From NCBI GenBank assembly GCA_003402705.1, contig QQNF01000008.1, positions 2,837 to 66,836 on the forward strand: DNA of 64,000 nucleotides, written 5' to 3'. The stretch comes from Verrucomicrobiota bacterium. Lineage in GTDB: Bacteria; Verrucomicrobiota; Verrucomicrobiia; Verrucomicrobiales; V1-33. The stretch's first letter is position 1, and each line of letters starts with the position of its first letter. The notes beneath the pieces are model-generated. The model searched no databases and was not told the DNA's origin. It worked only from the letters and a program-made list of their open reading frames with translations. Below are positions 9,708 through 36,635 of the stretch, in pieces. The position numbers were made by a program, and so were the translations under genes.

Positions 9708-9882
9708 GGCGTGAGAGGTCGTGTTGGAAAAGGGGGCGTTCCGATGGTGGACATCTGGTCCCCGAAACGCAATGAAAATGGGGACCCGGAGGGGTGCTTT
9801 CCTTGTTTGCATCAGCGCCCTTGCCGCATCATGGATTGATGGCGCGTCCCCTGGACTCGTTCACACCCCAATTTCACCTTCC

Positions 9883-20000: not shown

Positions 20001-20854
20001 AAGAAGAGCGGGAAGCGGCCCTCGACAAGGTCGAAACCGGTGACGAGCCGGACAGCGGCATCGTGAAGCAGGTGAAGGTCTACATTGCGTCGAAGCGGAA
20101 ACTCTCCGTGGGTGACAAGATGGCTGGCCGCCACGGAAACAAGGGGGTCGTCGCCAAGATCGTTCCGGAAGAGGACATGCCGTTCCTCGAAGACGGACGT
20201 CCGGTGGACATCGTGCTGAATCCGCTTGGGGTGCCTTCCCGGATGAACGTCGGTCAGGTTCTTGAGACGCACCTTGGGGTTGCGGCGCGGGCGCTTGGGA
20301 TGACGATCGCGACACCGGTTTTCGACGGGATTCCCGAGGAAAAGATCATGGGGTATCTCAAGGAAGCCCGCGACACCACCGAGCACACGTGGATCGGCCT
20401 GAACGGCAAGTCCCGTCTCTTCGACGGGCGTACCGGTGATCCATTCCACCAGGAAGTCGTCGTTGGCGTCATCTACATGATGAAGCTGGGTCACCTTGTT
20501 GCCGACAAGATCCACGCCCGGGCGGTTGGTCCGTACAGCCTCGTCACCCAGCAGCCGCTGGGGGGTAAGGCGCAGTATGGTGGTCAGCGCTTCGGTGAAA
20601 TGGAAGTCTGGGCCCTTGAGGCTTACGGTGCCGCCTACACGCTGCAGGAACTCCTCACGGTCAAATCGGACGACGTCCAGGGCCGTACGAGGATCTACGA
20701 AGCGATCGTCAAGGGGGACAACACGCTCGAGGCCGGCACGCCGGAATCGTTCAACGTCCTCATCAAGGAAATGCAGTCGCTGGGTCTCGACGTCAAAGTC
20801 GGGAACTCCAAGGCCGGTCCGGACGGGCAGGGCCTTGGCATGCTGAGCGCCTGA
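17018..20854 (+). CDS. rpoB: DNA-directed RNA polymerase subunit beta
   Basis: [60 protein letters not shown]. Confidence 0.99.
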
Positions 20855-20937: not shown

Positions 20938-23900
20938 ATGAGCGTCGAAACCCAGCTTCGAGAACTCTTTGGCGGAGACACCCGCCCACAGGGATTTGAC
21001 CACGTTGCGATCACGGTTGCCGCTCCGGACACGATCCGGAGCTGGAGCCGCGGCGAGGTCAAGAACCCGGAAACCATCAACTACCGCACATTCAAGCCCG
21101 AGAAGGGCGGCCTGTTCTGCGAGCGGATCTTCGGACCGACGCGCGACTGGGAATGTTCCTGCGGCAAGTACAAGCGCATCAAGCACAAGGGCGTGGTCTG
21201 CGACCGCTGCGGTGTTGAAGTGACGCTGAGCCGCGTGCGCCGCGAGCGCATGGGCCACATTGAACTGGCGGTTCCGGTCAGTCACATCTGGTTCTACAAG
21301 TGCATGCCGAGCCGCCTCGGTCTGATGCTGGACATGACGGCGCGCCAGCTGGAACGGGTGATCTATTATGAGGATTACATCGTCATCGACCCGCTGAACA
21401 CGCCGTTCACGCGCGGGCAGCTGCTGACTGAGGTTGAGTTCCGGGAAGCCGAGGAACAGTATGGGGAAGACAGCTTCCGCTACGGGATGGGTGCTGCTGC
21501 GGTCCAGGACCTGCTAGCTGGTGTCAATCTTCCGGAGCTGGTGATCGAACTTCAGGACGCGATGACGAAGACGCGTTCGAAGCAGACGCGCAAGAAGCTG
21601 GCGAAGCGGCTGAAGCTCGCACAGGGTTTCCATTCATCGCGGTCCCGTCCGGAATGGATGGTGCTGGATGTGCTCCCGGTGATTCCTCCGGACCTTCGTC
21701 CGCTGGTGCCGCTTGAAGGCGGGCGTTTCGCCACGTCTGACCTCAACGACCTCTATCGCCGCGTCATCAACCGGAACAACCGGCTCAAGAACCTGCTCCA
21801 ACTCAAGACGCCGGACGTCATCATCCGGAATGAGAAGCGGATGCTTCAGGAAGCGGTGGATGCGCTCTTCGACAACGGCCGTCACGGTCGTGCCGTCACC
21901 GGAGCCGGCAACCGTCCGCTGAAGTCGCTGTCCGACATGCTCAAGGGCAAGGGCGGTCGTTTCCGTCAGAACCTTCTCGGCAAGCGGGTCGACTACTCAG
22001 GCCGTTCCGTTATCGTCATCGGGCCTGAACTGAAGCTCAATCAGTGCGGTCTTCCGAAGAAGATGGCGCTCGTGTTGTTCGAGCCATTCATCATCCGCCG
22101 ACTGAAGGAACTTGGTTATGTGCACACGGTGCGCAGCGCCAAGAAGATGATTGAGCGCCGGACTCCGGAAGTGTGGGACATTCTTGAAGAAGTCACGAAG
22201 GGTCACCCGGTGCTCCTCAACCGTGCGCCGACGCTGCACCGCCTATCGATTCAGGCCTTTGAGCCGGTTCTCATTGAAGGGGAAGCGATCCGGATCCATC
22301 CGCTCGTCTGTACCGCTTACAACGCGGACTTCGACGGTGACCAGATGGCGGTGCACGTCCCGCTGTCGGTTGAAGCCCAGATGGAGGCCCGCCTCCTGAT
22401 GCTGGCGACTAACAACATCTTCTCGCCATCCAGTGGGAAGCCGGTGACGACGCCTTCGCAGGACATTACCCTCGGGTCGTACTTCCTCACACACACCCGG
22501 ACCAGTCAGGTCAAGATCAAGGACGAGAATCGCCGTCCGCTCTTCTCCGATCAGGCGGAAGTTGAAATGGCGCTCGCCGAAAACGGGATCGAACTTCATC
22601 AGCCGATTCTGTTCCGCAATCCTGACAAGGGACTCAAGACGGTGTTCGGCGACGAAACCAAGGGCCTCATCGAAACGACTGCGGGCCGCGTCCGCTTCAA
22701 CGAGATCTGGCCTGTCGCGCTCGGCTTCATTAACAAGAACGTCGGCAAGAAGCAGCTCTCGGACATCATCTGGCGCTGCTGGCAGACGTCCGGGCACGAG
22801 GAAACCGTGCGCGCGCTCGACCGGCTCAAGGAACTCGGGTTCAAGGCAGCCACGCAGTCCGGATGTTCGATTGGTATCACTGACATGGTGATTCCGGCCG
22901 AGAAGAAGGAAGAGCTGGAGAAGGCCTACGTGCGCCTCGAGGAAATCGACAAGCAGCACCGCCGCGGGATCATCACCGACCGCGAACGCTACAACATGAT
23001 CATCGACTTGTGGACGCAGGCCGGTGACCACATTCAGCAGACGCTCTTCCGCCAGCTCGAGCACAACGAAGGCAAGAAGTTCGCGAATCCGCTGTTCATG
23101 ATGGTCGATTCCGGTGCGCGGGGTAACAAGCAGCAGATCAAGCAGCTTGGCGGGATGCGCGGTCTGATGGCCAAGCCTTCCGGCGAGATCATTGAGCGCC
23201 CGATCACCTCGAACTTCCGCGAAGGCCTGACGGTGCTGGAGTACTTCATTTCCACGCACGGTGCGCGGAAGGGACTCTCCGACACGGCGCTCAAGACGGC
23301 GGACTCCGGCTATATGACGCGGAAACTCGTTGATGTGGCGCAGGACGTGATCGTCTTCGAAGAAACCTGCGGAACCACTAACGGCATTCTGGTTCGTTCT
23401 CTCTATGAAGGGGATGAAGAAGTCGTGGACCTCAAGCAGCGGATCTACGGCCGCGCCTCGTGCGAGACCGTGAAGGATCCGGTGACTGGCGAGACCATCG
23501 TCCGGACAAACGACGTCATCACCGAGAAGCAGGCGGAGTCGCTGACGCGCATCGGGGTGGAGCAACTGAAGATCCGTTCGGTGCTCACTTGCGAAAGCAA
23601 GCGTGGTTGCTGCGCCCTCTGCTATGGTCTGCACCTCGGCACGGGTCACCCTGTCAAGGTCGGTGAAGCGGTCGGGATTGTGGCTGCTCAGTCGATCGGT
23701 GAGCCGGGAACGCAGCTGACGATGCGTACGTTCCACATCGGTGGTGTTGCCGGTGGTTCGTTCAAGCAGCCGATCATCAAGGTCAAGCACTCCGGGATTA
23801 TCCGTTACAACGATATCCGGGCCGTCAAGGCGCCGGACGGCAACTTCATCGTGCTCACCAAGAACGGCACGGTTTCGGTCGTCGACAGCGAGGGCCTCGA

Positions 23901-25077
23901 ACTGGAAAGCCACAAACTGGTAATCGGTTCGGTCATCTACAAGGGTGAGAACGAGTCGATCAAGAAGGGCGAAACGCTCGTCACATGGGAACAGCACGCC
24001 GTTCCGGTCATCACGGAGCGCGAGGGAATCATTGACTTCCGCGACATGATCCCCGGGATCACGCTAGGCAAGTCTGGCGAGAAGGGCTCCGATCAGATGA
24101 TCGTCCTTGAGCACAAGGAAGACCTGCACCCGCAGATCGTTGTTCTCGCGCCGAAGTCCAAGGAAGTGCTGGCGAGTTACTCGATTCCTGCCGGCGCGTT
24201 CCTTTCGGTCAAGAAGGGCGAGCACGTTGATGCTGGGGTTACCCTGGCCAAGACGCCCCGCAAGGTCAGCAAGGCGAAGGACATTACCGGTGGTCTTCCC
24301 CGCGTTGCGGAACTGTTCGAAGCCCGCAAACCGAAGGACCATGCCGAGATCGCCAAGATCGACGGTGCGGTTTCCATCGGTGGAATGGTCCGCGGCAAGC
24401 GCAAGGTCATCGTCCGGGACGACGAGTCCGGTGAGGAAGAAGAGCACCTCGTCCCGCGCGGTAAGCACATCATCGTATTCGATGGCGACCGCGTGAAGAA
24501 GGGGGATCAGATCACCGAAGGGCCGGTGGTGCCGCATGAAATCCTCGAGATTCTCGGGCCTCATGAACTCCAGGAGCACCTCGTCAACGAGGTTCAGGAG
24601 GTCTATCGCCTCCAAGGGGTGGAGATCAACGACAAGCACATTGAGATCATCATCCGCCAGATGCTCCGCAAGGTGAAGATCACCGATCCGGGCGATACCG
24701 AGTTCCTCTGGGGCGACCAGATCGAGCGCATCGAGTTCGAGGAAGCCAACCGCGTCATTGTGGAGCAGGGCGGCAAGCCGGCGGAAGCCGAACCGGTTCT
24801 GCTCGGGATTACCAAGGCGAGCCTTGAAACTGATTCGTTCATCTCGGCCGCGTCCTTCCAGGACACGACCCGCGTCCTCACCGACGCCGCCACGCTCGGC
24901 AAGTTCGACTGGCTGCGCGGGTTCAAGGAAAACGTCATCATGGGCCACCTCATCCCGGCTGGTACCGGCTTCCTCCGGAACCGCGAGATGAAGGTCCACG
25001 AGGAAATCGACCTCCGGAAATCGGACGGCCTCGACTCGATCGAGGATGAAGCGGATTCCCTGCTCGACGCGATCTGA
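20938..25077 (+). CDS. rpoC: DNA-directed RNA polymerase subunit beta'
   Basis: Zn-finger CSCGKYK..CDRCGVE, catalytic [36 protein letters not shown]. Confidence 0.99.
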
Positions 25078-25104: not shown

Positions 25105-25137
25105 GGGCCGCGCTCCGGAAACGGGGCGCGGCCTTCT
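25105..25137 (+). terminator. Intrinsic terminator after rpoC
   Basis: GGCCGCGCTCCG-GAAA-CGGGGCGCGGCC followed by TTCT. Confidence 0.65.
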
Positions 25138-25152: not shown

Positions 25153-25225
25153 CGTTAAAAATGTAACGAATCGAACTTGCGGGCGGCGGTTTGTCCGTTA
25201 AATAAGCAACGCTAAATCTTTAACC
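25153..25225. promoter_or_regulatory. Three palindromic operator sites (consensus CGTTA-N6-TAACG) upstream of the BlaI-family gene
   Basis: 25153-68 CGTTA-AAAATG-TAACG (perfect arms); 25196-211 CGTTA-AATAAG-CAACG; 25210-25 CGCTA-AATCTT-TAACC. Confidence 0.7.
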
Positions 25226-25237
25226 GACACGAATGCC

Positions 25238-25621
25238 ATGACTGACAGTGCCCAACTAACGCGCCGGGAACGACAGATGATGGATGCGCTGTATGCGCGG
25301 GGGGAGGCGACGGTGAATCAGGTGGTGGAGGCGTTGCCGGATCCACCGACGCCGATGGCGGTGCGGCGGATGCTGCACATTCTGGAGGAGAAGGGGCATT
25401 TGCGGCGGCGGGAGCAGGGGAGGGAGGTGGTGTATGCGCCGAAGGAGTCGCGGTCGCGGGCAGGGAGGACGGCGTTTGAGAAGGTGCTGGAAACGTTTTT
25501 TGGCGGGTCGCTGGAGGAAGCGCTTTCGTCGCATCTGCTGTCGCGGAAGGATGGAGTGACGGAGGAGGAGCGGGACCGGCTGGTGGCGCTGATTGAACAA
25601 GCCAAGAAGGAGGGCCGCTGA
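25238..25621 (+). CDS. BlaI/MecI/CopY family transcriptional repressor
   Basis: LTRRERQMMDALY..GEATV..V, LEEKGHL.R...GR..VY.P, FFGGS..AL; directly upstream of an M56 peptidase gene. Confidence 0.93.
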   Translation: MTDSAQLTRRERQMMDALYARGEATVNQVVEALPDPPTPMAVRRMLHILEEKGHLRRREQGREVVYAPKESRSRAGRTAFEKVLETFFGGSLEEALSSHLLSRKDGVTEEERDRLVALIEQAKKEGR

Positions 25622-25622
25622 G

Positions 25623-28600
25623 ATGAACCGGATCCTGATCTTTGCGGCGGCTGCGGTTCCGCTGCTGGCGGATGCCTCGCTCAAGGGTGCGGCGCTGCTG
25701 GTGCTGGCTGGCGTGGGTGTGTTAGTGATGCGGCGGGCGTCTGCGTCTGCGCGGCACATGGTCTGGCTGGCGGCGATGGTGGCGTTGCTGATTGTTCCGG
25801 TGCTGAGCGTGGTGCTGCCGGGGTGGCGCGTGCTGCCGCGGTGGTCGGCGCGGCAAGCGGTGGTGGCTGATGTTGCGATGCCCCGAGCGGCCGAGAAGCC
25901 TGCCCTAACGGCACCGCCGACGGAACGACCGGTCGTGTTTCCTGCGGCGGCCCCGTTGCCGGTGCCCGAGATGGCTGCCGTGTTGCGGCCGAGTGTCCCG
26001 GTGTTGGTGGCGAGCGAATCCGTTATGCCGTTCCCGCGACACGGGTGGTTGCTGCCAATCTGGGCAGCCGGATGTGGGGTGCTGGTGCTTAGGCTTACGG
26101 CCGCGCATGTGCTTCTGCGCCGCAGCACCCGGCGCTGTGAACCCGCTGACGGTGCGCTCGTGGCCACGCTGGAGGCGGCGCGGGTCGAGTGTGGCGTTCG
26201 TCAGCCGGTGCGGCTGCTGATGGACAAGGGACGGACCATTCCGGTGGTCTGGGGGATGTTCCGGCCACAGCTCCTGCTGCCTGCGGAAGCGGAATACTGG
26301 AACGCGACGCAGCTTCGTTCGGTCCTGCTGCACGAACTAGCGCACCTGCGCCGACGGGATCCCCTGACGCAATTTCTCACCCAACTGGCCTGTGCGCTGC
26401 ATTGGTTCAATCCCCTTGTCTGGCTGGCGGCGTGGCGACTGCACGTCGAACGCGAGCGAGCCTGCGACGACCTTGTGCTGGCCCGGGGTGTCAAGCCATC
26501 GGCTTACGCCGAGCACCTGCTGCAGATTGCGACGCAGCTTTCCCCAGCGAGATGGACGCAGGCCTGTGGACTCGCGATGGCTCGCAAGTCATCGATTGAG
26601 GGGCGCCTGCATGCCGTCCTCAGCGACAAACTCAACAGGCGCAGTGTGACCCGCGCGCTCACGGCGGCGGCGCTGATGCTAGGTGCGATCATCGCCGTTC
26701 CGCTCGCGATGCTCCGCGCGGCGGATGAGAAATGGGATTCGCCGCTGCAGACGGCGGCGGAGAAGATGACTGCTGCGACGATCCGTCAGGGTGGGGCGCT
26801 GCCGGAGCGCTTCGGCGGCGTGGCTTGGGGCGAAACGCAGCCAACTGGCTTGCGGGCGGCGTGGTTGCTGGAGCCGGGGGCTGCGGAGCATCGCATGGGA
26901 ACGGCGTTGAAGGCGCGATTGCTGGTGCAGAATGCGGGGACCATTCCCGTGATGGCGCGAGTTCCGACATGGCATCAGGGAGGGGTTTCTGCGCGGGATG
27001 AGGCGGGCGGGGAAGTCGAGGTTTCCGGGATCGATTGGACGACCATCGCGAGGCTTGTTCCGGTTTGTCTTGCGCCTGGCGAGTATATTGAGATCAACGC
27101 GCCAGGTGTTGGGCTTGGTAAAGATGCGGGCCGCGGGCCATGGGCGGGGCCGCGTGTTGGTTCCAATGTGCTCGCGAAGGACGGCGCTGAACTCATCCTG
27201 ACGCATGGACCGATTCCGTTGGATGGCAGCGGTGTCGGCATGAGGGAAGATGCGCCGCACATTGTCGGTCCGGGTTGGTGGCAGGCGCATATCAAGGAAC
27301 GGTTGAGCCGCGAACTGCCGCTGCCTTCCAGTGGTGCCAAGCGCACTCACCTCCTCGACCGGGCTGTGCGCGATCTGTTCGCGACAACGCCTACGGCTGA
27401 CGAGATTGCCTCCTTTGCCACGGACCAGAGCGATGGTGCGCTCGATGCTCTTGTGCAGCGCCTAGCCGCAAGAGTGGATCGGGTCGAATTTTCAGGCTCG
27501 CTGCCCACTGCGCCGGTGAAGTTCCGCGTGCTTCCGGCTGATCCGGGCATTGCTGACAAAGCTCCGCGGGTCGTGCTCGGACCTGGCGAGTATCCATTGA
27601 GTGGAGGGACGGCGGCGCGCGGGGCGGTGATGCTGAAGATTGTTGGGCGGCCGGTTGGTGATCGCCGCACGAATGATGCGCAGATCCTGTTCGAGGCCAC
27701 CGAGGCGACGGGAAAGCTTCCGCCGAACCCTCACAAACTTGAGATCCCCGATGGCTGGGGTACATGGGCCATCGTCTGCCGCCCCGGCGAAGGATTCTTC
27801 TACGTCCTGCACAAAGGCGGCGCGCGGAAGATTGACTACAGCGATCCTGCCAAAGTCACCGACTTGCCCGCAACCGTTGTGCCCGTCGAGTTCCGTGACA
27901 AAGTGAAGCGCCAGTTGGACCTTGCTGGGGTCGCTGCCGAGTCGCTGGCCGAGGTGTTTGAAAGGGCTGCGGCTCCTGCTTCAGAGACGGGCGAGGCGAG
28001 GGCTCCGGAACAGACGCACTTGTGGAACGACAAGTATGCCGCAGTCGCCTACCAGACAGGGGAGGATGTGAACTTTGTCCTTGTCCATGAGGGCTTCATT
28101 TCGACGGGGATCGAGGAGAGCTTTTCGCCGATGAGCGGGTGGTGGCGCATCGCGGGGAACATTCACCTCGTGGACTCGAAGCTGACGGAGGCGGCGGGCA
28201 AGAATGTGGATAAGCGCGTCATCGCGGTGAAGCACACATCTGACGAGCCGGGGACGCTGTATATCGACGGCAAGGCGTACGCGCTGGGTGCCGGGCGCGT
28301 CTTCGTCCTCGGTGATGCTGGCGAGCCGTTCCAGGCGGCGAGGTCGATGGCGCTGCGGACCAAGGAGGACTTGGTGAAGATTGGAGACATTGTGATAGAG
28401 GACGTGAAGCGGGCGCGGCAAGGGAAGACGCCTGAGCCGAAGCAGACGGGGTCAGTCCAGCCTGTGACGGACGGCAAGTCCTCGGCCCAGGTGCTGCGGG
28501 CGGATGGTCAGGAGCCGATTGTCATCCTAACTGGGCGGGCGCTCACGGCCTCGCCGGAATCGACCGGCCGTGAGGGAGGTCTGACGATGGATGTGGCGAC

Positions 28601-31600
28601 TTCGGACAAGACGATCACGGTCCGGTACGTCTGGCCGGAGGACGCGCCTGGTTTTCTGGATCTCAAGGCCGGGGGCTATCCTGTTTCGCGCTTCGATCTG
28701 AGTCGGGGGCGAGTGTTTTATGTGCATTTCGAGAAGCTGGAGTTTGCGGCCGAGATATTCCAGGTGCCTGCGGGGACCAAGGTGCCGGCGATTGATTCGC
28801 CTGCGGCGCTGACGGAGGCGGCCGCAGCTGTGACAGCGTGGTATGCGTCGTGTGACGACCGGGCGCGTTGGGAATCCAGTCGCGTGGTGGTGCCTGAAAG
28901 CGAGTATAAAGGCGGAAAGCCGCTGGATGCCGGTGCTGACAAGATTGTGTGGGGCGAAGCGAATGACGCAGGGTTGCGGCTGGGGATTGGAGGATTGGAG
29001 CCGGGAGTAGCGTATGCGGTGGGCCAGCAACTGCCGGTGAAGCAATACATCCGCAATGATAGCGGCAGTGTGGTCGCGTTCAGTCCGACGCAGATTTTCA
29101 ATGAGGGCGTGGGCGGCGAGCTTGTTCGCAAGGCCGATGGGAAAAAGTTCCCTCACCAGAAGGGCTACCCGGGGCAGGGATTTTTTGACCGTGTGAGACT
29201 CGCGGCTGGGCACTACATTGAGATAGGGTCCGGCCCGATGCGCACGATCATGGCGGAGAAGAATGGATCCAGTCCTGGGGGGATGGACATGATGGCGCAC
29301 GGGTTTACCGTGTGGCCGGGTGAGTATACGCTGCGGCTTACGCACGACATCGGGCAGTTTCTGGGACGCCCGGCGAACTCTCATTTCGGGGATCCCCGCA
29401 ACGCCCCGGGGCTGGGCGAATGGACGGGTGTCCTGACGTCCGAGGCAGTGCCGCTGCGGCTGGCGGATGAGCAGGTGAAAACGGCGAAGGCGGGGGACAG
29501 CGAGGCATTTGGAAGCCAGTACATGATTGCCTTCGAGAAGGGCGTCATCAGGCTGCGGCATTACAAAGGGTATCCCAACATGGCGCAGACAGGTGGCCCG
29601 TGGGAAGACGGGATCCGCGACTGGAAGATTCCTGCGGCCGATGGCGAGTACGTGGCGGCGTGGGCGGTGGGAGGGAATGGGATTTGGGTCAAGGATGCGT
29701 CAGGAATCACTCATCTGATCGTGAAGGAGAACCTGACGGAGATTGGGAAGTGGACGCTGGAGCAGGCGGCGGGAGGAAGGGGCGACATGCCTGCGGGGGT
29801 GCGTGCGGTGCTGCAGTTGCCGCCGGGACGGGTGGAGGAGAAGCCATCTGCTGAAGCACCGGCGGCGGGCGGGCCGGTTAAGCCGCGGCACGAGTCGGCG
29901 CAGTCGCTTTTCCGCAGGTGGCAGGCGGGCGCGCGGACGGATGGGATGATTCCTGCGGCGGTCGCGGAGCAACTGGCGGGGGAGGTGGAACCTGTTGATG
30001 ACACGGCCCGCGCGTTGTTCAAAAGATGGAAGGTGTATTCGCGAACGAATGGGATGATTCCAGGCGGGCTCGTCGGGCGGCTCGTGGAGAGCATTAACGT
30101 TTACCTCAAGCGGCCGCCCAGAGAAGATGCCGTACCGAAGCTCGCGGCGGTCCGGGCGAAGCTGGATAAATCCAGAGACTGGACGCCGAGGGATGCGGCG
30201 GCGATGCTGGACGAAGTCTCTGCGATTGAGGACCTTCCAGTATTCTGGGCTCGGGGGTCGCTGGATTACCTTGAGGGTGGGTATCTGAGTCGCGGCAAGC
30301 CACTTCCGGATGAGCTGAGAGATGTGGGCTGGGGAAAGCCCGGGAGTAAGGGATTGCGGGCTGCGTGGCGACTGGAACCCAGGGCAGCGGTTTACGCGCC
30401 GGAGTCGGTGCTGAGGGCGCGTGTCTTGTTTCACAATACCGGCCGGGTCCCCGTCGTGTTCACGACGAACGAGGAGCACCGACTTGATGAGCATCATGCT
30501 CATGATGCTGGAGGTAAAGCGATTGCCGTGGAGCCCTCTCGGGATGAGGGCATGGAAATCCATAGGATGTGCAGGCTGGGGCCGGGGGAATTCTGTGAGG
30601 TGACTGCACCGAGGGTCGCCATAGGATGGCGTGACCGGCGGGATATTGACGTTTTCATCAATATCGGCGCGAAAGAGGGCGACGAAGTGATTCTCAGTCA
30701 CAAGGTGGAAGCCGGGTGGATTCCTCCCGACGTGGACGGTGAATGGACGAATCCAGTTGTCGAAGAACTGGCGGCACGAATGAGCGAGGCGATCACCGAA
30801 CGCATCGAGCTGGAGTCCCCCCTGCCGCATGCTGCTGCGGACCGCGAGTCGATCGTCCGGCGGCTGATGATTGATTTCACGGGTGAGCCACCAACGGACG
30901 AGCGGGTGAGGGCATTCGTTACTGACGATTCATCCGATGCTATGGTGAAGCTCAGAGACCACTTGCTTGCGAATCTGGTCAGCGTCACGTGGAGCGGTCC
31001 GTTGGAGACGGGTGAGACGAGATTCCGTGTGGTTCCGACTGACCCGGCAGCTGCGAAGGCTGCACGATCGGCTAATTCCACCGGGCGCTACGTGCTTGGG
31101 GACGCGGTGGATCTGCGGATCTCACAGACGGCCTCCGCACTCGGCCGACGGAACCGAGCGACCATAGTCTTCCGTTCGCCCGACCCGGAGCAGGTATCGG
31201 GTTGCAAACCCTATGAGATTGCGCTGCCTGACGGGACTGACACTTACGGGATGGTGTGGGTGCGGGGTGCGGGGGAATTGTGGGTGATGGAGAACGGTCT
31301 GGTGAGGCGTTATGATTTCAGGGAACCGGGAGCGGTGAAGGAAGTGAGGATTGAGTCTGGGAGTATTGGTGATATTCCGGAGCCATTGCGGGAGGCGATG
31401 AAGCAGGCGTTCGGTGAGCTTGCGGCGACCGGGCAGCAGCAGCGGCAGAGAGCATCTGGGGCAGGAGCGCGGCGAGCGGTCGATTGGGGCAAGTTCCCGG
31501 CGTATGATGAGCTTGAAGATCCGTTTGTGACCGAGAAGGCTCTGGAGCTGGCGGCGAAGGCCGAGTTGGCGAGTGATGAGGTGCGTCGCCTGATGTTCAT

Positions 31601-33314
31601 GATTCTGCAGGCGACTGTGGAGAAGGCTGGCGAGTTGCAGCCGCTGCTGAAGGATGATCAGTTGAAGCGGAAGGATGACGAGCATCACAGCCTTGCGCTG
31701 GCGCTAGCGGCGTACGATTATTCGCTGAACGGGAATCGGGAGGCGCTGCGGTTTATGCTCGACGAACTGGCGAACGGACCGGCGGGGGATGTGCAGGCGG
31801 CGGTGCCGTTTGGGTTCATTGATGAATGGGAGCTGACGATGGCGGCGCACGAGAAGCATTTTGCGAGGGGAGCGGACGGGGCGGCAGGGGAATCGTACGG
31901 ATTGTTCTGGGAGCAGCGGAGTGTGCTCTACCCGGAGCAGTTGGCGCGGTATCAGGAGAAGGCCCTGAAGGGGGCAGGACTGGATGCGGAGTCGCGGCGT
32001 GGTGTGTGGACCGGGAGCAAGGATGGGGTCAGTGTGGCGTTGCGTTTTGGTGATGACGTGAGCTGGGTGATCAGGAATGGTGAGGGTTTCGCCACGGCGA
32101 CGCTGAAGGTTTCGCCCGGGGTTCCGGCGACGCATCTGGATGTGATGGTGCTGCACGGGAAGGAAGAATGGGTGCAATGCGGGAGAGTGTCGCGCGGGGC
32201 TGGGGGCGGTTTGCAGTTGGAGATCTGGCCGCACACGAGTGCGGCACCCTTTCTGCCGAGGATCAGCGGGTTGGAGCTGACGAAGCGGCCGTCGGAGGTG
32301 CCGGGGATGTCGCGTGAGGCGGTGCTGCTTGATAGTGATGTTGAGGGTCGACTTGCGTGGGGTGAGCCGGTGAATGGGGTGCGCGCGGCATTGGTGAGGG
32401 TTTCGCCGGGAGGTGACGCGAAGCCGGGGACGGTGATTGATTTGAACGTGGTGGTACAGAACGTGAGTGAGCAGCCGGTGACGTTCCGCGGCGAAAGTCC
32501 GGGGGCGGGAGCGGCGCCGAAGATTGTCCTGGCGGACGGCACGGTGAAGGATGTGGGACAGAATATTGTGGACATCCTGAGTGCCGTTAACGACCTCGTG
32601 CTGCCGCCGCGGCATGTTATTGTGATGACGCTGATGTCGATGGCCATCGGTGAGTTTGGGGCGGACACCCGGAGCGCAGACCCGAATCGGTCAGTGGGTT
32701 ATTCGACCGGGAAGCTGGCGGATGGGGCGGTGGTGGCCGGATTGACGGCGTCGCTGTCGTTCGGGCATGGTCCGGCGAATGCGTGGAAGGGGACGCTGAT
32801 GTCAGGAACGCTGAGTTTGGAGGCCGATCGGTCGGAGCAGAAGGCATCGGTGCTGGATCCATCTACGGAGGCACAGCTGGATTGGGGCGAGGCGGTGAAT
32901 GGATTGAGGGGGGCGCTCATCATTCGTTCGCCGGGTCCGGGGAAGCCGGAGGGAATCTACCTGGCGGTGCAGAATGTTTCGGATGCGCCGCTGCGTTTTG
33001 TCGACGAGGTCAGGGATGAGCGTCTGCGGGCGCTTTACCTTGGCGATGCGAAAGGTGTCAAGGCGGTGCTGTCGAATGCCGAGCCGACGATGACGGACGT
33101 GACGATTGAGCCGCGCGGGGTGGTGTATCTTAACATGATGCTGCGCGATGCGAGCGCGGAGGTCGCTGAGGTGCTGATTGAAGGCATCCGGAAGGATTCG
33201 CGGGAGCGATGGCGTGCGGGGCTTGAGCTGCGGGATGTTCCGGATGGCGCGTGGAAGGGGAAGCTGACGACGGGGGAGACGCGCGGAGCGGTGCAGGAGG
33301 GCGGCCGTCGTTGA
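25623..33314 (+). CDS. Giant BlaR1-like M56 metallopeptidase signal transducer with a repeated-module extracytoplasmic region (~2563 aa)
   Basis: TM helices, ASARHMVW, P.VWG..RP.LLLP, LLHELAHLRRRD (HExxH at 26331), WFNPLVW, ERE.ACDD.V, then a TM helix and ~2180 aa of repeated modules. ATG 25623 lies 1 nt after the blaI stop. Confidence 0.88.
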   Translation: MNRILIFAAAAVPLLADASLKGAALLVLAGVGVLVMRRASASARHMVWLAAMVALLIVPVLSVVLPGWRVLPRWSARQAVVADVAMPRAAEKPALTAPPTERPVVFPAAAPLPVPEMAAVLRPSVPVLVASESVMPFPRHGWLLPIWAAGCGVLVLRLTAAHVLLRRSTRRCEPADGALVATLEAARVECGVRQPVRLLMDKGRTIPVVWGMFRPQLLLPAEAEYWNATQLRSVLLHELAHLRRRDPLTQFLTQLACALHWFNPLVWLAAWRLHVERERACDDLVLARGVKPSAYAEHLLQIATQLSPARWTQACGLAMARKSSIEGRLHAVLSDKLNRRSVTRALTAAALMLGAIIAVPLAMLRAADEKWDSPLQTAAEKMTAATIRQGGALPERFGGVAWGETQPTGLRAAWLLEPGAAEHRMGTALKARLLVQNAGTIPVMARVPTWHQGGVSARDEAGGEVEVSGIDWTTIARLVPVCLAPGEYIEINAPGVGLGKDAGRGPWAGPRVGSNVLAKDGAELILTHGPIPLDGSGVGMREDAPHIVGPGWWQAHIKERLSRELPLPSSGAKRTHLLDRAVRDLFATTPTADEIASFATDQSDGALDALVQRLAARVDRVEFSGSLPTAPVKFRVLPADPGIADKAPRVVLGPGEYPLSGGTAARGAVMLKIVGRPVGDRRTNDAQILFEATEATGKLPPNPHKLEIPDGWGTWAIVCRPGEGFFYVLHKGGARKIDYSDPAKVTDLPATVVPVEFRDKVKRQLDLAGVAAESLAEVFERAAAPASETGEARAPEQTHLWNDKYAAVAYQTGEDVNFVLVHEGFISTGIEESFSPMSGWWRIAGNIHLVDSKLTEAAGKNVDKRVIAVKHTSDEPGTLYIDGKAYALGAGRVFVLGDAGEPFQAARSMALRTKEDLVKIGDIVIEDVKRARQGKTPEPKQTGSVQPVTDGKSSAQVLRADGQEPIVILTGRALTASPESTGREGGLTMDVATSDKTITVRYVWPEDAPGFLDLKAGGYPVSRFDLSRGRVFYVHFEKLEFAAEIFQVPAGTKVPAIDSPAALTEAAAAVTAWYASCDDRARWESSRVVVPESEYKGGKPLDAGADKIVWGEANDAGLRLGIGGLEPGVAYAVGQQLPVKQYIRNDSGSVVAFSPTQIFNEGVGGELVRKADGKKFPHQKGYPGQGFFDRVRLAAGHYIEIGSGPMRTIMAEKNGSSPGGMDMMAHGFTVWPGEYTLRLTHDIGQFLGRPANSHFGDPRNAPGLGEWTGVLTSEAVPLRLADEQVKTAKAGDSEAFGSQYMIAFEKGVIRLRHYKGYPNMAQTGGPWEDGIRDWKIPAADGEYVAAWAVGGNGIWVKDASGITHLIVKENLTEIGKWTLEQAAGGRGDMPAGVRAVLQLPPGRVEEKPSAEAPAAGGPVKPRHESAQSLFRRWQAGARTDGMIPAAVAEQLAGEVEPVDDTARALFKRWKVYSRTNGMIPGGLVGRLVESINVYLKRPPREDAVPKLAAVRAKLDKSRDWTPRDAAAMLDEVSAIEDLPVFWARGSLDYLEGGYLSRGKPLPDELRDVGWGKPGSKGLRAAWRLEPRAAVYAPESVLRARVLFHNTGRVPVVFTTNEEHRLDEHHAHDAGGKAIAVEPSRDEGMEIHRMCRLGPGEFCEVTAPRVAIGWRDRRDIDVFINIGAKEGDEVILSHKVEAGWIPPDVDGEWTNPVVEELAARMSEAITERIELESPLPHAAADRESIVRRLMIDFTGEPPTDERVRAFVTDDSSDAMVKLRDHLLANLVSVTWSGPLETGETRFRVVPTDPAAAKAARSANSTGRYVLGDAVDLRISQTASALGRRNRATIVFRSPDPEQVSGCKPYEIALPDGTDTYGMVWVRGAGELWVMENGLVRRYDFREPGAVKEVRIESGSIGDIPEPLREAMKQAFGELAATGQQQRQRASGAGARRAVDWGKFPAYDELEDPFVTEKALELAAKAELASDEVRRLMFMILQATVEKAGELQPLLKDDQLKRKDDEHHSLALALAAYDYSLNGNREALRFMLDELANGPAGDVQAAVPFGFIDEWELTMAAHEKHFARGADGAAGESYGLFWEQRSVLYPEQLARYQEKALKGAGLDAESRRGVWTGSKDGVSVALRFGDDVSWVIRNGEGFATATLKVSPGVPATHLDVMVLHGKEEWVQCGRVSRGAGGGLQLEIWPHTSAAPFLPRISGLELTKRPSEVPGMSREAVLLDSDVEGRLAWGEPVNGVRAALVRVSPGGDAKPGTVIDLNVVVQNVSEQPVTFRGESPGAGAAPKIVLADGTVKDVGQNIVDILSAVNDLVLPPRHVIVMTLMSMAIGEFGADTRSADPNRSVGYSTGKLADGAVVAGLTASLSFGHGPANAWKGTLMSGTLSLEADRSEQKASVLDPSTEAQLDWGEAVNGLRGALIIRSPGPGKPEGIYLAVQNVSDAPLRFVDEVRDERLRALYLGDAKGVKAVLSNAEPTMTDVTIEPRGVVYLNMMLRDASAEVAEVLIEGIRKDSRERWRAGLELRDVPDGAWKGKLTTGETRGAVQEGGRR

Positions 33315-33443: not shown

Positions 33444-33472
33444 TTGACAGGCATCGGGGAAATCCCTAAACT
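33444..33472 (+). promoter_or_regulatory. Near-consensus sigma70 promoter
   Basis: TTGACA (33444-49), 17-nt spacer, TAAACT (33467-72), 18 nt before ATG 33491. Confidence 0.75.
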
Positions 33473-33490: not shown

Positions 33491-34765
33491 ATGAGACCTG
33501 AGTCCAGCACAACAGCCACGAGCGGCAGCCGCGTGTTGCGGAACGTGTGGGTATGCCTTGGATTGCTGGCGGTGGGTCAGGTGGCTGCGCTGGCGGTGTC
33601 GTACCGGATGCCGGTTGCGGTGGTGGGCGGAGGGGAGCCGGTTGCGGCGGTTGATGAGGTGAAGGATGTGGAGGTTCCAGCGATTCCTGTGGCGGAGCCG
33701 GTGTTGGCGGTGGCGGTGCCGGTGAAGGATGATCCGTTTGCGGATCCGAGGCCGCAGGTGGTGGTGGATCCGGATGCGCCGGAGCCCGAGGATCCGGGGA
33801 TGGCGCTGCTGATGGAGGCGAAGGAGAAGGAGATGCTAGAGGAGGGCGGGGTGTCGCTGCCCGGGGTTTCGACGGGACCGCGGGCACCGGCGGCGAAGGT
33901 GCAGGCACCACTGGATGTGGCGATCACGGACGAGGTGGTCCTGGCGCATCTGGATGAGGGTTTGAATTTGCGGACATCGGGGGACACGAATGGAGCGCTG
34001 GCGCATCTGCGGGCGGCGGCGGTGGTGCTGCCGGATCATCCGAAGGTGCTCTATCATCTGGCGCTGACGCTGGACACGATGGGATTGGTGCGGAAGGCGC
34101 AGCCGGTCTGGGAGAGCCTGCGGGCGCTTGGAGACGGGGCGGGCGATTTCTTTGTGCTGGCGCGCGACCGCCTGCGTGACGGCGTTGAGGCGTCGGCGGA
34201 GCCGGAGGAAGACAGGGAGGGGAAATTTACGATAGGATCGCTGGATGAAGAACGCGTGGTGGACTCGGGCGGCGAGCGGGTGCGGTTCACGACGGTGATT
34301 CGCAAGAAGTCGGATCAGCCGGTGGACATGGAGAAGATGACGCTGGCGATTCACTTCTTTGATTCGGTGAACGGGCGGAGCATTGCGCGTTCGCATGCGA
34401 TGGAGCCGGTGTTGAGTTGTGAGAGTGAGCCGGCGGACTGGGCAGCTGGCGGGGAGACGTTTGTGTTTGATTACTGGCAGCCGGCGATGTCGCCGGACGA
34501 GCTGCAGCGGCTAGGGAGGTGCCGGTATTACGGGTGTGCGCTGGAAGTGATTTACGAGGACAAGCTGCAGGATGCGACGGCGACGACCGGGGAGTTGCTG
34601 CAGATGGCGAGGGAGCTTCCGCTGCCGGACCGGACTGCGCCGGATGCGCTGCTGGACAGCGGGCCGCAGCCATCGCCGCTGGTGCCGACGATCCCGGGCA
34701 GCCCGGAGAACCTGCTGTTCCCGCCGGCTGCGGCACCGCGGGCTGCGCCGACAGCACCCCGCTGA
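33491..34765 (+). CDS. Membrane-anchored TPR-containing hypothetical protein
   Basis: N-terminal TM helix, Pro/acidic linker, TPR-like segment GDTNGALAHLRAA..LPDHPKVLYHLALTLDTMG, C-terminal beta-rich domain. Confidence 0.7.
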   Translation: MRPESSTTATSGSRVLRNVWVCLGLLAVGQVAALAVSYRMPVAVVGGGEPVAAVDEVKDVEVPAIPVAEPVLAVAVPVKDDPFADPRPQVVVDPDAPEPEDPGMALLMEAKEKEMLEEGGVSLPGVSTGPRAPAAKVQAPLDVAITDEVVLAHLDEGLNLRTSGDTNGALAHLRAAAVVLPDHPKVLYHLALTLDTMGLVRKAQPVWESLRALGDGAGDFFVLARDRLRDGVEASAEPEEDREGKFTIGSLDEERVVDSGGERVRFTTVIRKKSDQPVDMEKMTLAIHFFDSVNGRSIARSHAMEPVLSCESEPADWAAGGETFVFDYWQPAMSPDELQRLGRCRYYGCALEVIYEDKLQDATATTGELLQMARELPLPDRTAPDALLDSGPQPSPLVPTIPGSPENLLFPPAAAPRAAPTAPR

Positions 34766-34769
34766 AGTC

Positions 34770-36635
34770 ATGATCGTGCTGATTGCCACGGACGATGCGG
34801 CAAGCCGTGAGGCGCTCGTGGGGGAGCTCGCGGCGGCGCCTGACTATCGAGTGCTGACGGCTAGCGAGCCTGCGGAGCTGCAGAGCCTTGCGGCGGGATT
34901 GAGCGGGCTGGATGTGTTTTTGTTTTCGGGGCGGTTTGCGACGGTGGAGGGCAAGGCGATGCGGGAGCAGTTGCGGCGGGAGTTTCCGGGATTGGAGGCG
35001 GTGCAGATGGATGGTGCGGCACCGTCGAAGGTGGCGGCGTGGCTGGGTGAGTTGGCTGCGGCGCGGGCGGCGACGGTGCCGGTGGGCGTCCCGGTGGTGC
35101 TAGGGGATTATGAACTGCGGGAGAAGCGGCGGAGCCTGCCGAAGACGGATACGTTTCGAGCGGTGCAGCGGTCGGTGAACCGTGAAGTGGTGCTGGAGCG
35201 GCTGAAGCCGGAGATTGCGGCGGATGCGGATGCGGTGCGGGATTTCCGGGCGCTGGTGCGGGCGCGTGCGGCGGTGGATTGTCCGGTGATTGCGGCGGTG
35301 TACGAGGTGCAGGAGAGGGATGGGGCGGTTTTTTACACGCGGGAACTGGTGAGCGGGCGGAGCCTTGAGGAGATCCGGGCGGCGGGGCAGCGGATTCCGG
35401 CGGTGAATGCGCTGCAGGTGCTGCATGGGGCGGCGGATGCGCTAGGGTGGCTGGGGTCGCGGCGGATTCCGCGGGAATCGTTCGGCCCGGCGCATGTGTT
35501 TCATGGTGAGGATGGGACGGTGCGGGTGGCGAATCTGGCGGCGTCCGGGCCGGTGGCGGCGGTGAATGAAGCGGGGGAGATTCGGGCGTTGGCGACGGCA
35601 TTGATGGCGACGGCGGATTTCCGGTCGGCGGGAGCGCGGGAGCTGTCGCATCTGCTGGCGCTGATGAAGGCGGCGGGGGCGCAGGGGTTGGGGACGTGGC
35701 GTGCGGTGGCGGCGGAATCGGGGGCGGCGCTGCGGCGGATTGCGGACGGGGGCCGGGGCGGGGAATCGCCGGGGAGGAAGCGGGTGTGGCCTGCGGCGGT
35801 GGTGCTGCTGGCGCTGGTGGGTGGGACGGTGGCGGCGGTGATGCATTTTCAGAAGCGGAAGCAGCAGCAGCAGTTTGCGTCGCGGGATGTGTCCGGGATG
35901 GTGAAAGTTCCGGCTGGGGAATTTCTGTTCGGGGATGGGCGGCGGCTGAGTCTTGCGGAGTTCTGGATTGACCGGCATGAGGTGACGATCGGGACGTATG
36001 GGGCGTTTCTGGAGGCGGTGGCGGCTGGTGATCCGAAGCGGTTTGATCATAAGGACCAACCGGCGGCGAAGGGTGGGCATGAGCCGAAGGATTGGCAGGG
36101 GATACTGGAGGCGGCGCGAGCGGGGCAGCCGTGGCACGGGGCGGTGCTGACCCTGCAGTCGCCGGTATTTCATGTGGATTGGTGGGATGCGTGGGCCTGT
36201 GCGCGGTGGCTGGGGAGGAGACTGCCGACCGAGCAGGAATGGGAGCGTGCGGCGCGGGGGATGGATGGGCGGCTTTATCCGTGGGGTGAGAAACCGGATC
36301 CGGCATTGGCGAACACGGGTGTGGATTATCCTGGCACGAGTGGAGCGATGCCTGGAGGAAGCGATGGGCATGCGTTGTGGTGCGATGTGGATGCGGTGGA
36401 AGGTGACTTGAGCCCGGATGGGGTGCATGGGATGGCGGGGAATGTGGCGGAGTGGACGGATTCGTGGGCCCCGCACCCGGAACTTCCCGACGAGACCGTG
36501 CCGGTGTTCCGTGGCGGTGATTTTCGGCAGCCGAAGGCGGTGCCGATGAACACGCCGTGGCTGGCGGACGATGCATCATACGCCCAGGCATTTCTCGGTT
36601 TCCGAACGGCGACATCTGTCCCACCATCACCTTGA
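34770..36635 (+). CDS. Pseudo-receiver + Ser/Thr pseudokinase + TM + FGE-sulfatase (SUMF1) fold protein
   Basis: N-term MIVLIATDD (receiver-like). LGDYEL..FRAVQRSVNREVVL..AAVYEV..FYTRELVSGRSL resembles a kinase N-lobe but HRD and DFG are absent. After the TM: FWIDRHEVT, RLPTEQEWERAARG, YPWG, GMAGNVAEW, LGFR. ATG at 34770. Confidence 0.8.
   Translation: MIVLIATDDAASREALVGELAAAPDYRVLTASEPAELQSLAAGLSGLDVFLFSGRFATVEGKAMREQLRREFPGLEAVQMDGAAPSKVAAWLGELAAARAATVPVGVPVVLGDYELREKRRSLPKTDTFRAVQRSVNREVVLERLKPEIAADADAVRDFRALVRARAAVDCPVIAAVYEVQERDGAVFYTRELVSGRSLEEIRAAGQRIPAVNALQVLHGAADALGWLGSRRIPRESFGPAHVFHGEDGTVRVANLAASGPVAAVNEAGEIRALATALMATADFRSAGARELSHLLALMKAAGAQGLGTWRAVAAESGAALRRIADGGRGGESPGRKRVWPAAVVLLALVGGTVAAVMHFQKRKQQQQFASRDVSGMVKVPAGEFLFGDGRRLSLAEFWIDRHEVTIGTYGAFLEAVAAGDPKRFDHKDQPAAKGGHEPKDWQGILEAARAGQPWHGAVLTLQSPVFHVDWWDAWACARWLGRRLPTEQEWERAARGMDGRLYPWGEKPDPALANTGVDYPGTSGAMPGGSDGHALWCDVDAVEGDLSPDGVHGMAGNVAEWTDSWAPHPELPDETVPVFRGGDFRQPKAVPMNTPWLADDASYAQAFLGFRTATSVPPSP

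Follow-up and report, generated by a model that had tools for sequence, protein, structure and literature searches.

What does a BlaI/BlaR1-type regulatory pair sense when its receptor carries no penicillin-binding domain? The question is raised by a stretch of 64,000 nucleotides from a Verrucomicrobiota bacterium (GenBank assembly GCA_003402705.1, contig QQNF01000008.1, positions 2,837 to 66,836 of the forward strand; the whole stretch is called the window here), in which a blaI-like gene is followed by a single open reading frame (ORF) for a giant M56 protease whose C-terminal part is built from repeated modules named WG after their first two residues. An original prediction, made from the letters of the window alone, had proposed that this pair is an undescribed sensing system in which a modular, shuffled receptor array signals by proteolysis of the repressor. 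The reading that we favor, and consider rather probable, is a two-gene, self-regulated, BlaIR-type proteolytic unit on a Verrucomicrobiaceae chromosome, whose input is a non-penicillin-binding chain of ~2190 aa with roughly 14 domains.

Non-canonical BlaR proteins are already known to be common. Most M56/BlaR-like proteins reportedly sense non-β-lactam cues, and almost none of those signals is known. According to a recent preprint, M56 proteins without a transpeptidase domain form the majority and transpeptidase forms make up only ~6%; the commonest architecture has a non-transpeptidase C-terminal region, fusions to TonB_C rank next, and ~96% of M56 proteins have a blaI-like gene nearby (bioRxiv 10.64898/2026.04.08.717257). 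The claim of an undescribed system was too broad in this respect, since non-penicillin-binding BlaR homologs had been reported as the majority. It holds for the WG domain and for the giant form in the Planctomycetes-Verrucomicrobia-Chlamydiae (PVC) bacteria, of which no description was found in the literature on M56/BlaR1 in Planctomycetes or Verrucomicrobia. As judged by sequence comparison, what distinguishes this pair is a large folded modular ectodomain made of an uncatalogued β-sandwich, with one strongly conserved super-repeat and a turnover of modules near the species level.

The repressor gene, the protease and the putative operator

The two genes occupy 25238..33314 as predicted, and they begin with the following features. 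Residue numbers throughout follow the TTG-frame start of the giant ORF; 10 is to be subtracted for ATG numbering.

25153..25168, no strand: operator-like palindrome 1, CGTTA-N6-TAACG = CGTTAAAAATGTAACG, 85 nt before the blaI ATG
25196..25211, no strand: operator-like palindrome 2, one mismatch, 43 bp from palindrome 1
25210..25225, no strand: third palindrome copy, one mismatch, overlapping palindrome 2
25238..25621, + strand: BlaI/MecI/CopY-family winged-helix repressor, 127 aa (PF03965 Penicillinase_R, E 1.7e-23, full length 1-115/115)
25623..26744, + strand: M56 zinc-protease membrane domain (Peptidase_M56 PF05569, E 3.9e-36, aa 34-341)

The first possible start of the giant ORF in the ORF list is TTG 25593. 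We take ATG 25623 as the start because the relatives begin with MNR, which stands at this ATG in every one of them, and because P0003, a database protein 99% identical and encoded on a separate 16.8-kb contig, has a full length of 2563 aa; the gene is thus likely to span 25623-33314 (+ strand) and to encode 2563 aa. The ATG lies one base past the blaI stop codon, and an AAGGAGG Shine-Dalgarno sequence is found at 25607-25613. The repressor, which also matches the Bacillus licheniformis penicillinase repressor weakly (1p6r, E 0.0034), is encoded in the same operon as the protease and immediately upstream of it, an arrangement seen in all 15 related loci that hold the 5′ end (15/15; BlaI copies 67-100% identical).

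The protease carries the predicted HELAH motif at 26331-26345, and a downstream Glu codon in the place of a third zinc ligand follows at 26454-26456. When the M56 domains of the window and of related loci were aligned, 14 in all, the H, E and H of HELAH and the Glu 37 residues past the second His proved invariant (14/14). The profile of these domains matches Staphylococcus aureus BlaR1 (8exs, E 6.4e-13), with HELAH aligned to H201-E202-x-x-H205 and the invariant Glu to E242 (numbers counted from the alignment), which we take to be the third zinc ligand of BlaR1; phmmer of the single M56 domain against the PDB found nothing. Beyond M56, Pfam recognizes only a partial PSCyt2/DUF1549 stretch and a weak, overlapping Peptidase_M48 match (E 0.033) in the giant protein. 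At Pfam E ≤ 1 it has neither a transpeptidase (PF00905) or class-D-like domain nor TonB_C (PF03544), in agreement with the original prediction, and it can be placed neither with canonical BlaR1/MecR1 proteins nor with the M56-TonB_C fusions. Hydropathy gives four segments (aa 28-46, 57-75, 153-171 and 356-374); the fourth is immediately followed by the C-terminal part of ~2190 aa (~2180 had been predicted). On hydropathy this four-segment layout matches that of BlaR1, and by analogy with BlaR1, from which the orientation is taken, the C-terminal part would be periplasmic.

The palindromes upstream of blaI are conserved. Without mismatch, CGTTA-N6-TAACG is found in the 64-kb window only at 25153-25168, within the 160 nt ahead of blaI. 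The relaxed pattern CGYTA-N6-TARCG, with up to one mismatch, was scanned upstream of blaI in 14 sequences and was present in all of them (14/14), in at least two copies in 13 and as a pair 43-44 bp apart in 12; it matched 30 times in 2380 nt upstream of blaI versus nine times in 247140 nt elsewhere. Between the dyads there is a TTGC-type hexamer, and a -10 element would be expected where the second dyad has its A/T-rich spacer, which would put the conserved palindromes, at the level of sequence, at the operon promoter. The pair in 25153-25225, which falls outside the coordinates of the original prediction, is probably the BlaI operator. Staphylococcal bla and mec operators are likewise paired dyads. 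In complete genomes, the operator-like palindrome could serve to search for the regulon.

WG domain, super-repeats and module shuffling

The evidence that sets the C-terminal part apart from other BlaR-like proteins comes from its modules, the main ones being as follows.

26781..27221, + strand: WG module 1 (aa 397-543), predicted β-sandwich, first part of super-repeat A1 (hidden Markov model (HMM), independent E-value (iE) 2e-52)
27258..27932, + strand: helical PSCyt2/DUF1549-like piece (aa 556-629) and second β domain (aa 631-780) of A1 (HMMs, 1.6e-36 and 1.8e-68)
28440..29825, + strand: module D (aa 946-1411), a divergent third super-repeat (hhalign), with a β part Dn (aa 950-1104), WG module 2 (aa 1105-1235), a closing motif at 1277 and a C-terminal piece (aa 1343-1411)
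30285..31427, + strand: super-repeat A3, with WG module 3 (aa 1565-1707), a helical PSCyt2-like piece (1729-1794) and a second β domain (1798-1945) (BLAST, HMMs)
32325..33170, + strand: WG modules 4 and 5, a stand-alone tandem at the C-terminus (HMM iE 2.6e-23 and 1.9e-18)

A six-frame scan of the window for W-G-[EK]-x(3,4)-G-[LV]-R gives exactly five matches, at 26826, 28950, 30330, 32358 and 32883, all in the giant ORF and all as predicted; when the protein was shuffled 2000 times, the mean was 0.0015. An HMM with A-type modules of relatives as its sole input recovers module 2 (iE 8.7e-8) and module 4 (2e-5), and the iterated HMM converges on 417 domains from related proteins and the reading frames of the loci, with all five modules of the window significant (2e-18 to 2e-52). 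Judging from these profiles, the five WG modules are homologous. They are ~130-150 aa long, extending over aa 397-543, 1105-1235, 1565-1707, 2245-2373 and 2418-2526, and modules 4 and 5 are 45% identical to each other (E 2e-10). When 44 diverse WG domains were aligned, the Asn of the predicted hydrophobic-x-N strand was invariant (44/44), and the W, G-L, a Gly and the Leu of LxPG were kept in at least 90%. The motif [WF]xGxLx[ST], which had been thought to end each module, does occur once in each module and five times in total (aa 633, 1277, 1800, 2398 and 2554), but in modules 1 and 3 it sits after a helical insert of ~75 aa and not at the end of the β-sandwich.

An AlphaFold2 model of aa 382-800, made from a 26-row alignment, reached a predicted local distance difference test score (pLDDT) of 81.5 and a predicted template modeling score (pTM) of 0.73. 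It shows an N-terminal helix, a WG β-sandwich of about ten strands (segment residues 39-157), four helices (181-244), the second β domain (strands 261-379) and two closing helices. According to this model the WG module is a β-sandwich, an ordinary fold class, of an uncatalogued family; none of the 44 WG domains was significant in Pfam (0/44; best single E 0.0097). Against PDB sequences the WG profile matched FAP65 Ig-like repeats at 1.9e-6, with no stretch passing alone, and BsuPI (3isy) at 0.046. Membership in known Ig-like families (BsuPI, fn3_5, MOV-10 Ig-like and ASH/FAP65-type) is not supported by the Pfam, PDB and Foldseek results.

Three super-repeats had been proposed in the giant protein; two of them are clear by sequence and the third is divergent. 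A1 and A3 (aa 397-758 versus 1565-1918) are 31-36% identical (E 1e-19, fragment-versus-whole BLAST), and by HMMs each consists of a WG domain, a helical piece and the second β domain. The helical piece matches the first third of the PSCyt2 model (DUF1549, PF07583): the whole protein scores 59.8 bits against a cut-off of 29.8, covering only positions 5-66 of 209 in two copies, of which the better is aa 1733-1794 in A3. It is only a fragment of that family, and PSD1/DUF1553, the usual partner of PSCyt2, is absent from the giant protein. In the literature searched, one transcriptome paper mentions DUF1549/DUF1553. Module D lacks the helical piece. Its WG part is recognized by hhalign (96.4%, E 1.2e-9), and its last 59 columns, from the IPAADGEYVAAW part to the P..R helix, match the second β domain (94.6%, E 7.3e-8) when a broader, 203-row family of that domain is used for the IPAADGEYVAAW part; the rest of module D gives a collinear alignment with the A-type unit that is not significant (hhalign 2.9%, E 0.016), and in its middle no similarity to the second β domain was detected. 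The modeling by module and Foldseek search that had been suggested as a check gave the β-sandwich for A1 but only a poor model for aa 801-1415, with a pLDDT of 63.6 overall, ~90 in module E (described below), and below 50 in WG 2 and the rest; Foldseek with this model returned DDB1 and others at a query-normalized TM-score (TMq) ≤ 0.14, which is noise.

A search with aa 380-2573 found 73 relatives of 1431-3674 aa, whose source names are only 'M56 family metallopeptidase' or 'beta-lactamase regulating signal transducer'. A precomputed M56 domain is present in 65 of the 73, and 13 carry ExbD (PF02472), which the window protein lacks. The predicted shuffling of modules is borne out by their order, surveyed with the module HMMs in 74 giant proteins (the window protein and its 73 relatives): there are 66 distinct orders, with two to 11 WG domains per protein (median 4). 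Among the 312 WG domains counted, 126 sit in WG-helix-β2 units, and a helix-β2 unit without WG is found just once in the 74 proteins. A recurrent short form of ~1540-1590 aa consists of M56, a super-repeat, WG and another super-repeat.

A genome scan yielded 24 loci, in metagenome-assembled genomes (MAGs) labeled Verrucomicrobiota and Planctomycetota and under a few odd labels. Two of them, L001 and L002, share the rpoB-rpoC-blaI synteny with the window; L001 has 99.9% (rpoB) and 99.3% (rpoC) protein identity, and the rpoBC DNA is 95-96% identical. Their giant gene has ~232 aa extra between M56 and A1, the region of aa 1415-1862 is replaced, A3 is only 48% identical, and L001 holds further modules. 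Whole-module turnover is thus seen, at the level of sequence, already between genomes with 95-96% identical rpoBC DNA, roughly the species level, which makes the family a useful system for studying the diversification of bacterial receptors. A1 is present as one ortholog, 65-93% identical, in most loci (52% in one, and a paralogue-level match of 34% in another), while the M56 domains are only 47-65% identical outside the closest relatives. The tree of A1 orthologs mixes the phylum labels, with three changes, at least two of them forced by supported branches; this could be due to transfer, extreme conservation or mis-binned MAGs. Between MAGs labeled Verrucomicrobiota and Planctomycetota, A1 and BlaI are 65-82% identical. 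One related locus is labeled Hyphomicrobiaceae and one Kuenenia.

Some relatives depart from the pair found in the window. Distant M56 paralogues, 26-39% identical, were noted at L009:430-5151, L024:95-1831 and L024:15841-19089 (a - strand frame, in reverse-strand coordinates); they adjoin the blaI-giant pair in Planctomycetota loci, so that systems of this kind are clustered in these genomes. L005:4583-18631, P0009, P0016, P0037 and P0075 have the WG/super-repeat array without M56 and with ExbD/TolR (PF02472), and some of the 13 ExbD-bearing relatives also carry M56. The presence of ExbD on WG arrays hints at Ton/Tol-type energy transduction.

The WG domain is found well beyond the giant proteins. 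An HMM of the WG module, which had been proposed as a check on PVC genomes, was run against 1.84 billion representative clusters and matched 2647 of them at E ≤ 1e-3 (1356 at ≤ 1e-10 and 307 at ≤ 1e-30). Architectures were surveyed in the best 150 of the 2647 clusters, with M56 identified by HMM and the other 74 proteins by Pfam. M56 is present in 76 of the 150 representatives, and 20 carry an extracytoplasmic function (ECF)-type sigma-70 (regions 2 and/or 4); in 19 of the 20 fusions, a stretch with one or two hydrophobic segments lies between the sigma part and two to four tandem WG domains. A further 30 have no Pfam family match, and the remainder match PSCyt2, CarboxypepD_reg, DUF1559, leucine-rich repeats (LRR), WD40, ExbD or, weakly, Ig-like families. 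Of the 74 without M56, 56 start with M, and many of the 74 may be fragments. The same WG β-sandwich that lies on M56 proteins would thus stand just outside the membrane segment of ECF sigma fusions of PVC bacteria, whose output is a fused sigma factor and not a protease and repressor pair; because it is carried on both, WG appears to be the outside part of two unrelated transmembrane signaling chassis, which argues for WG as an input module. Extended planctomycete ECF groups have been described; our literature search retrieved no paper on them.

The proposed signaling route and its alternatives

By likeness to BlaR1/BlaI and MecR1/MecI of S. aureus and B. licheniformis, which likewise have a PF03965 repressor and a membrane M56 zinc protease with four hydrophobic segments, and whose extracytoplasmic C-terminal input would have its counterpart in the long C-terminal part, the window pair may work as follows. 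BlaI dimers would bind the two palindromes, which would flank and overlap the promoter of blaI, and so repress the operon and perhaps targets farther away. The outside chain, with its WG domains, two full super-repeats and unrelated domains, would bind a non-β-lactam cue or be deformed by it, and the change would pass via the fourth membrane helix to the M56 zinc protease at the cytoplasmic face, whose catalytic residues are intact and align with those of S. aureus BlaR1. The protease would then cleave BlaI, as in the family generally, and transcription would be de-repressed. Signaling by repressor proteolysis, as originally proposed, is something we infer from sequence; the inference is strengthened by the intact zinc site, the blaI gene upstream in every locus with a 5′ end, and the conserved palindrome pair. 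The cue is probably non-β-lactam and macromolecular or from the envelope, as suggested by the propellers, LRR, Ig-like and ExbD domain types in relatives. Because each relative has one highly conserved ortholog of it, A1 is the best candidate for a core that receives or relays the signal, and the other modules may be an exchangeable periphery.

The closest parallels differ from the window in the input. In place of the transpeptidase-type sensor of canonical BlaIR systems, the window has ~2190 aa of predicted β-sandwich and helical modules; its gene order is blaI then blaR, and the divergent β-lactamase gene is absent. Non-canonical BlaR proteins such as those of the CenR/CenI type in Clostridioides difficile, described in the preprint cited above, also combine M56 and a blaI partner with a non-transpeptidase C-terminus, but the tail of CenR is ~130 aa and predicted to be disordered, in contrast to the folded, repeated domains of the window protein. 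PetR/PetP of Synechocystis sp. PCC 6803 is a copper-responsive BlaI/BlaR1-like pair; in a commentary on it, copper is proposed to be sensed in the protease part of PetP, and the description, with no giant ectodomain, sets it apart (PMC7896320).

Several results weigh against the BlaIR-type reading. The NCBIfam BlaI model gives only 23 bits against a cut-off of 180 bits, and blaR1_generic 82.2 bits against 400, over only positions 106-336 of 585. The promoter scan called no sigma-70 consensus upstream of blaI, and the promoter read by eye between the palindromes (TTGCGG, 16 nt, TAAATA) matches at only 3/6 positions per hexamer; nowhere else in the 64-kb window does the operator pattern match well. 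As for the chain, no resemblance of any module to a known ligand-binding sensor domain was found, and Foldseek of the A1 model against the PDB returned only generic β-sandwich matches (VPS26C, the AsaP1 propeptide, GlgE, GH3 Fn3-like domains and RbmA) at TMq ≤ 0.19. Ig-like sandwich chains are, moreover, no less characteristic of adhesins and of structural proteins of the envelope than of sensors.

It is conceivable, if rather unlikely in our view, that the chain is mainly a structural scaffold or adhesin, and that M56/BlaI monitors its integrity or load and reports envelope stress or attachment. All confidently modeled domains are β-sandwiches or helical spacers without a pocket-type match; relatives add WD40 propellers, LRR, CarboxypepD_reg and ExbD, which are typical of protein-protein contacts in the envelope; and the range of two to 11 WG domains recalls length-variable surface proteins. 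The conservation of A1 in most loci is more in line with a specific, conserved partner than with the role of a spacer, however, and the same WG array is used on ECF sigma fusions; in any case a load-monitoring scaffold overlaps with the proteolytic unit that we favor and does not exclude it. It seems improbable that M56 processes the giant protein itself or other envelope proteins, with BlaI as a merely neighboring autoregulator. The M56 alignment does show a conserved stretch past the catalytic core and a conserved LNRR motif just before the last membrane segment, and S. aureus BlaR1 is reported to cut itself. Such self-cleavage is, however, part of the BlaR1 mechanism and no alternative to it, blaI is linked to the protease gene at all 15 loci and translationally coupled to it, and the ~96% association of M56 proteins with blaI-like genes, reported in the preprint cited above, points the same way.

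An artifact is very improbable. Because repeats are prone to misassembly and module content varies among the closest relatives, the 7.7-kb ORF might be suspected to be an assembly chimera or a decaying pseudogene; against this, its frame is unbroken over the whole 7.7 kb, P0003 reproduces it at full length from a different contig, the internal repeats are only 30-45% identical as protein, too divergent for assembly collapse, and the frame stays intact through the blocks collinear with L001 and L002, which are 87-93% identical. A canonical β-lactam sensor, with a penicillin-binding domain diverged beyond recognition, is scarcely credible. All that speaks for it is the family name given by the source, 'beta-lactamase regulating signal transducer', whereas PF00905 and class-D-like domains are absent at E ≤ 1, the NCBIfam BlaR1 model matches the protease part only, the models show β-sandwiches and helices and not a transpeptidase fold, and no β-lactamase gene was found among the scanned neighbors. 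The giant gene should not be annotated as a regulator of β-lactam resistance.

More tentatively, and doubtful in its full extent, the WG β-sandwich, and in particular the unit of pre-WG helix, WG, helical piece and second β domain, may be an unnamed PVC-specific family of extracytoplasmic inputs, plugged into at least two chassis, M56/BlaI and membrane-tethered ECF sigma factors, and used also with ExbD-type proteins. The giants would then be combinatorial receptor arrays, in which the invariant core A1 recognizes a conserved envelope or environmental macromolecule and the modules of the periphery, exchanged roughly from species to species, keep up with targets that vary and are possibly biotic. 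The handles now available include A1 as a folded, conserved candidate input module across relatives labeled as two phyla, and the WG domain family, whose 2647 clusters Pfam does not cover.

Other modules and neighboring genes

The super-repeats are separated by unrelated modules, namely E, Dn, the pre-WG elements and F. Those not listed above, together with a hairpin upstream of the operon, are as follows.

25106..25133, + strand: G+C-rich hairpin with an 8-bp stem, then TTCTG, 3′ of rpoC (sequence reading)
28005..28391, + strand: module E (aa 805-933), β-rich domain then long helix (52 copies in 43 related sequences)
29835..30251, + strand: two helical 'pre-WG' elements (aa 1415-1468 and 1463-1553; iterated HMM 3.5e-11 and 2.2e-30)
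31470..32288, + strand: module F, helical domain (aa 1960-2085) and β domain (aa 2123-2232) (family HMMs)

The pre-WG element has 193 copies in 94 related sequences and precedes most A-type super-repeats in relatives, and the helical and β domains of module F have 21 and 63 copies, respectively. Neither Pfam, PDB/Foldseek nor the ESM Atlas gave a lead for module E; Pfam, PDB and the ESM Atlas gave none for module F, and the ESM Atlas had no usable match for modules E plus Dn. By hhalign, no relation of the WG domain to modules E, Dn and Fb or to the second β domain was detected, and E and Dn align at only 58.5%. A degenerate sixth WG in module F (iE 1.6e-3 initially) was rejected (later iE 1.2; hhalign 0.8%). 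The module HMMs match no other ORF in the window.

Directly before the blaI region lie rpoB (17018-20854) and then rpoC (20938-25077). The hairpin at 25106-25133 was not called by the terminator scan because it has no T-run; it is possible that it is the rpoC terminator, which would make blaI the start of its own transcription unit. At the other end, a promoter-like site at 33444-33472, ahead of the next gene, suggests that the operon ends at 33314. Downstream are a 424-aa ORF with no Pfam match (33491-34765, + strand) and a gene for a 687-aa protein with an FGE-sulfatase domain at its C-terminus (34572-36635, + strand). These flanking genes (rpoB-rpoC, the 424-aa ORF and the FGE-sulfatase gene) are common only to L001 and L002 and are not shared with distant loci, so the genomic context yields no functional clue. 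The WG-bearing sigma fusion P0172 also has an FGE-sulfatase domain, maybe by coincidence.

A classic planctomycete-type PSCyt2 and PSD1 (DUF1549/DUF1553) protein is encoded at the start of the window (47-2113, + strand), so the full-length family coexists here with the partial PSCyt2-like piece of the giant protein. A second giant multidomain envelope or secreted protein is encoded by a 2101-aa ORF (3507-9812, - strand) with CotH kinase, Lamin-tail, F5/8 type C, Laminin_G_3 and chitobiase C-terminal domains. The GC skew of the + strand is positive nearly all along the window, reaching 0.2-0.46 from ~26 kb to 64 kb and being near zero only at 12-24 kb, and Pfam-supported genes lie on both strands in 46-64 kb.

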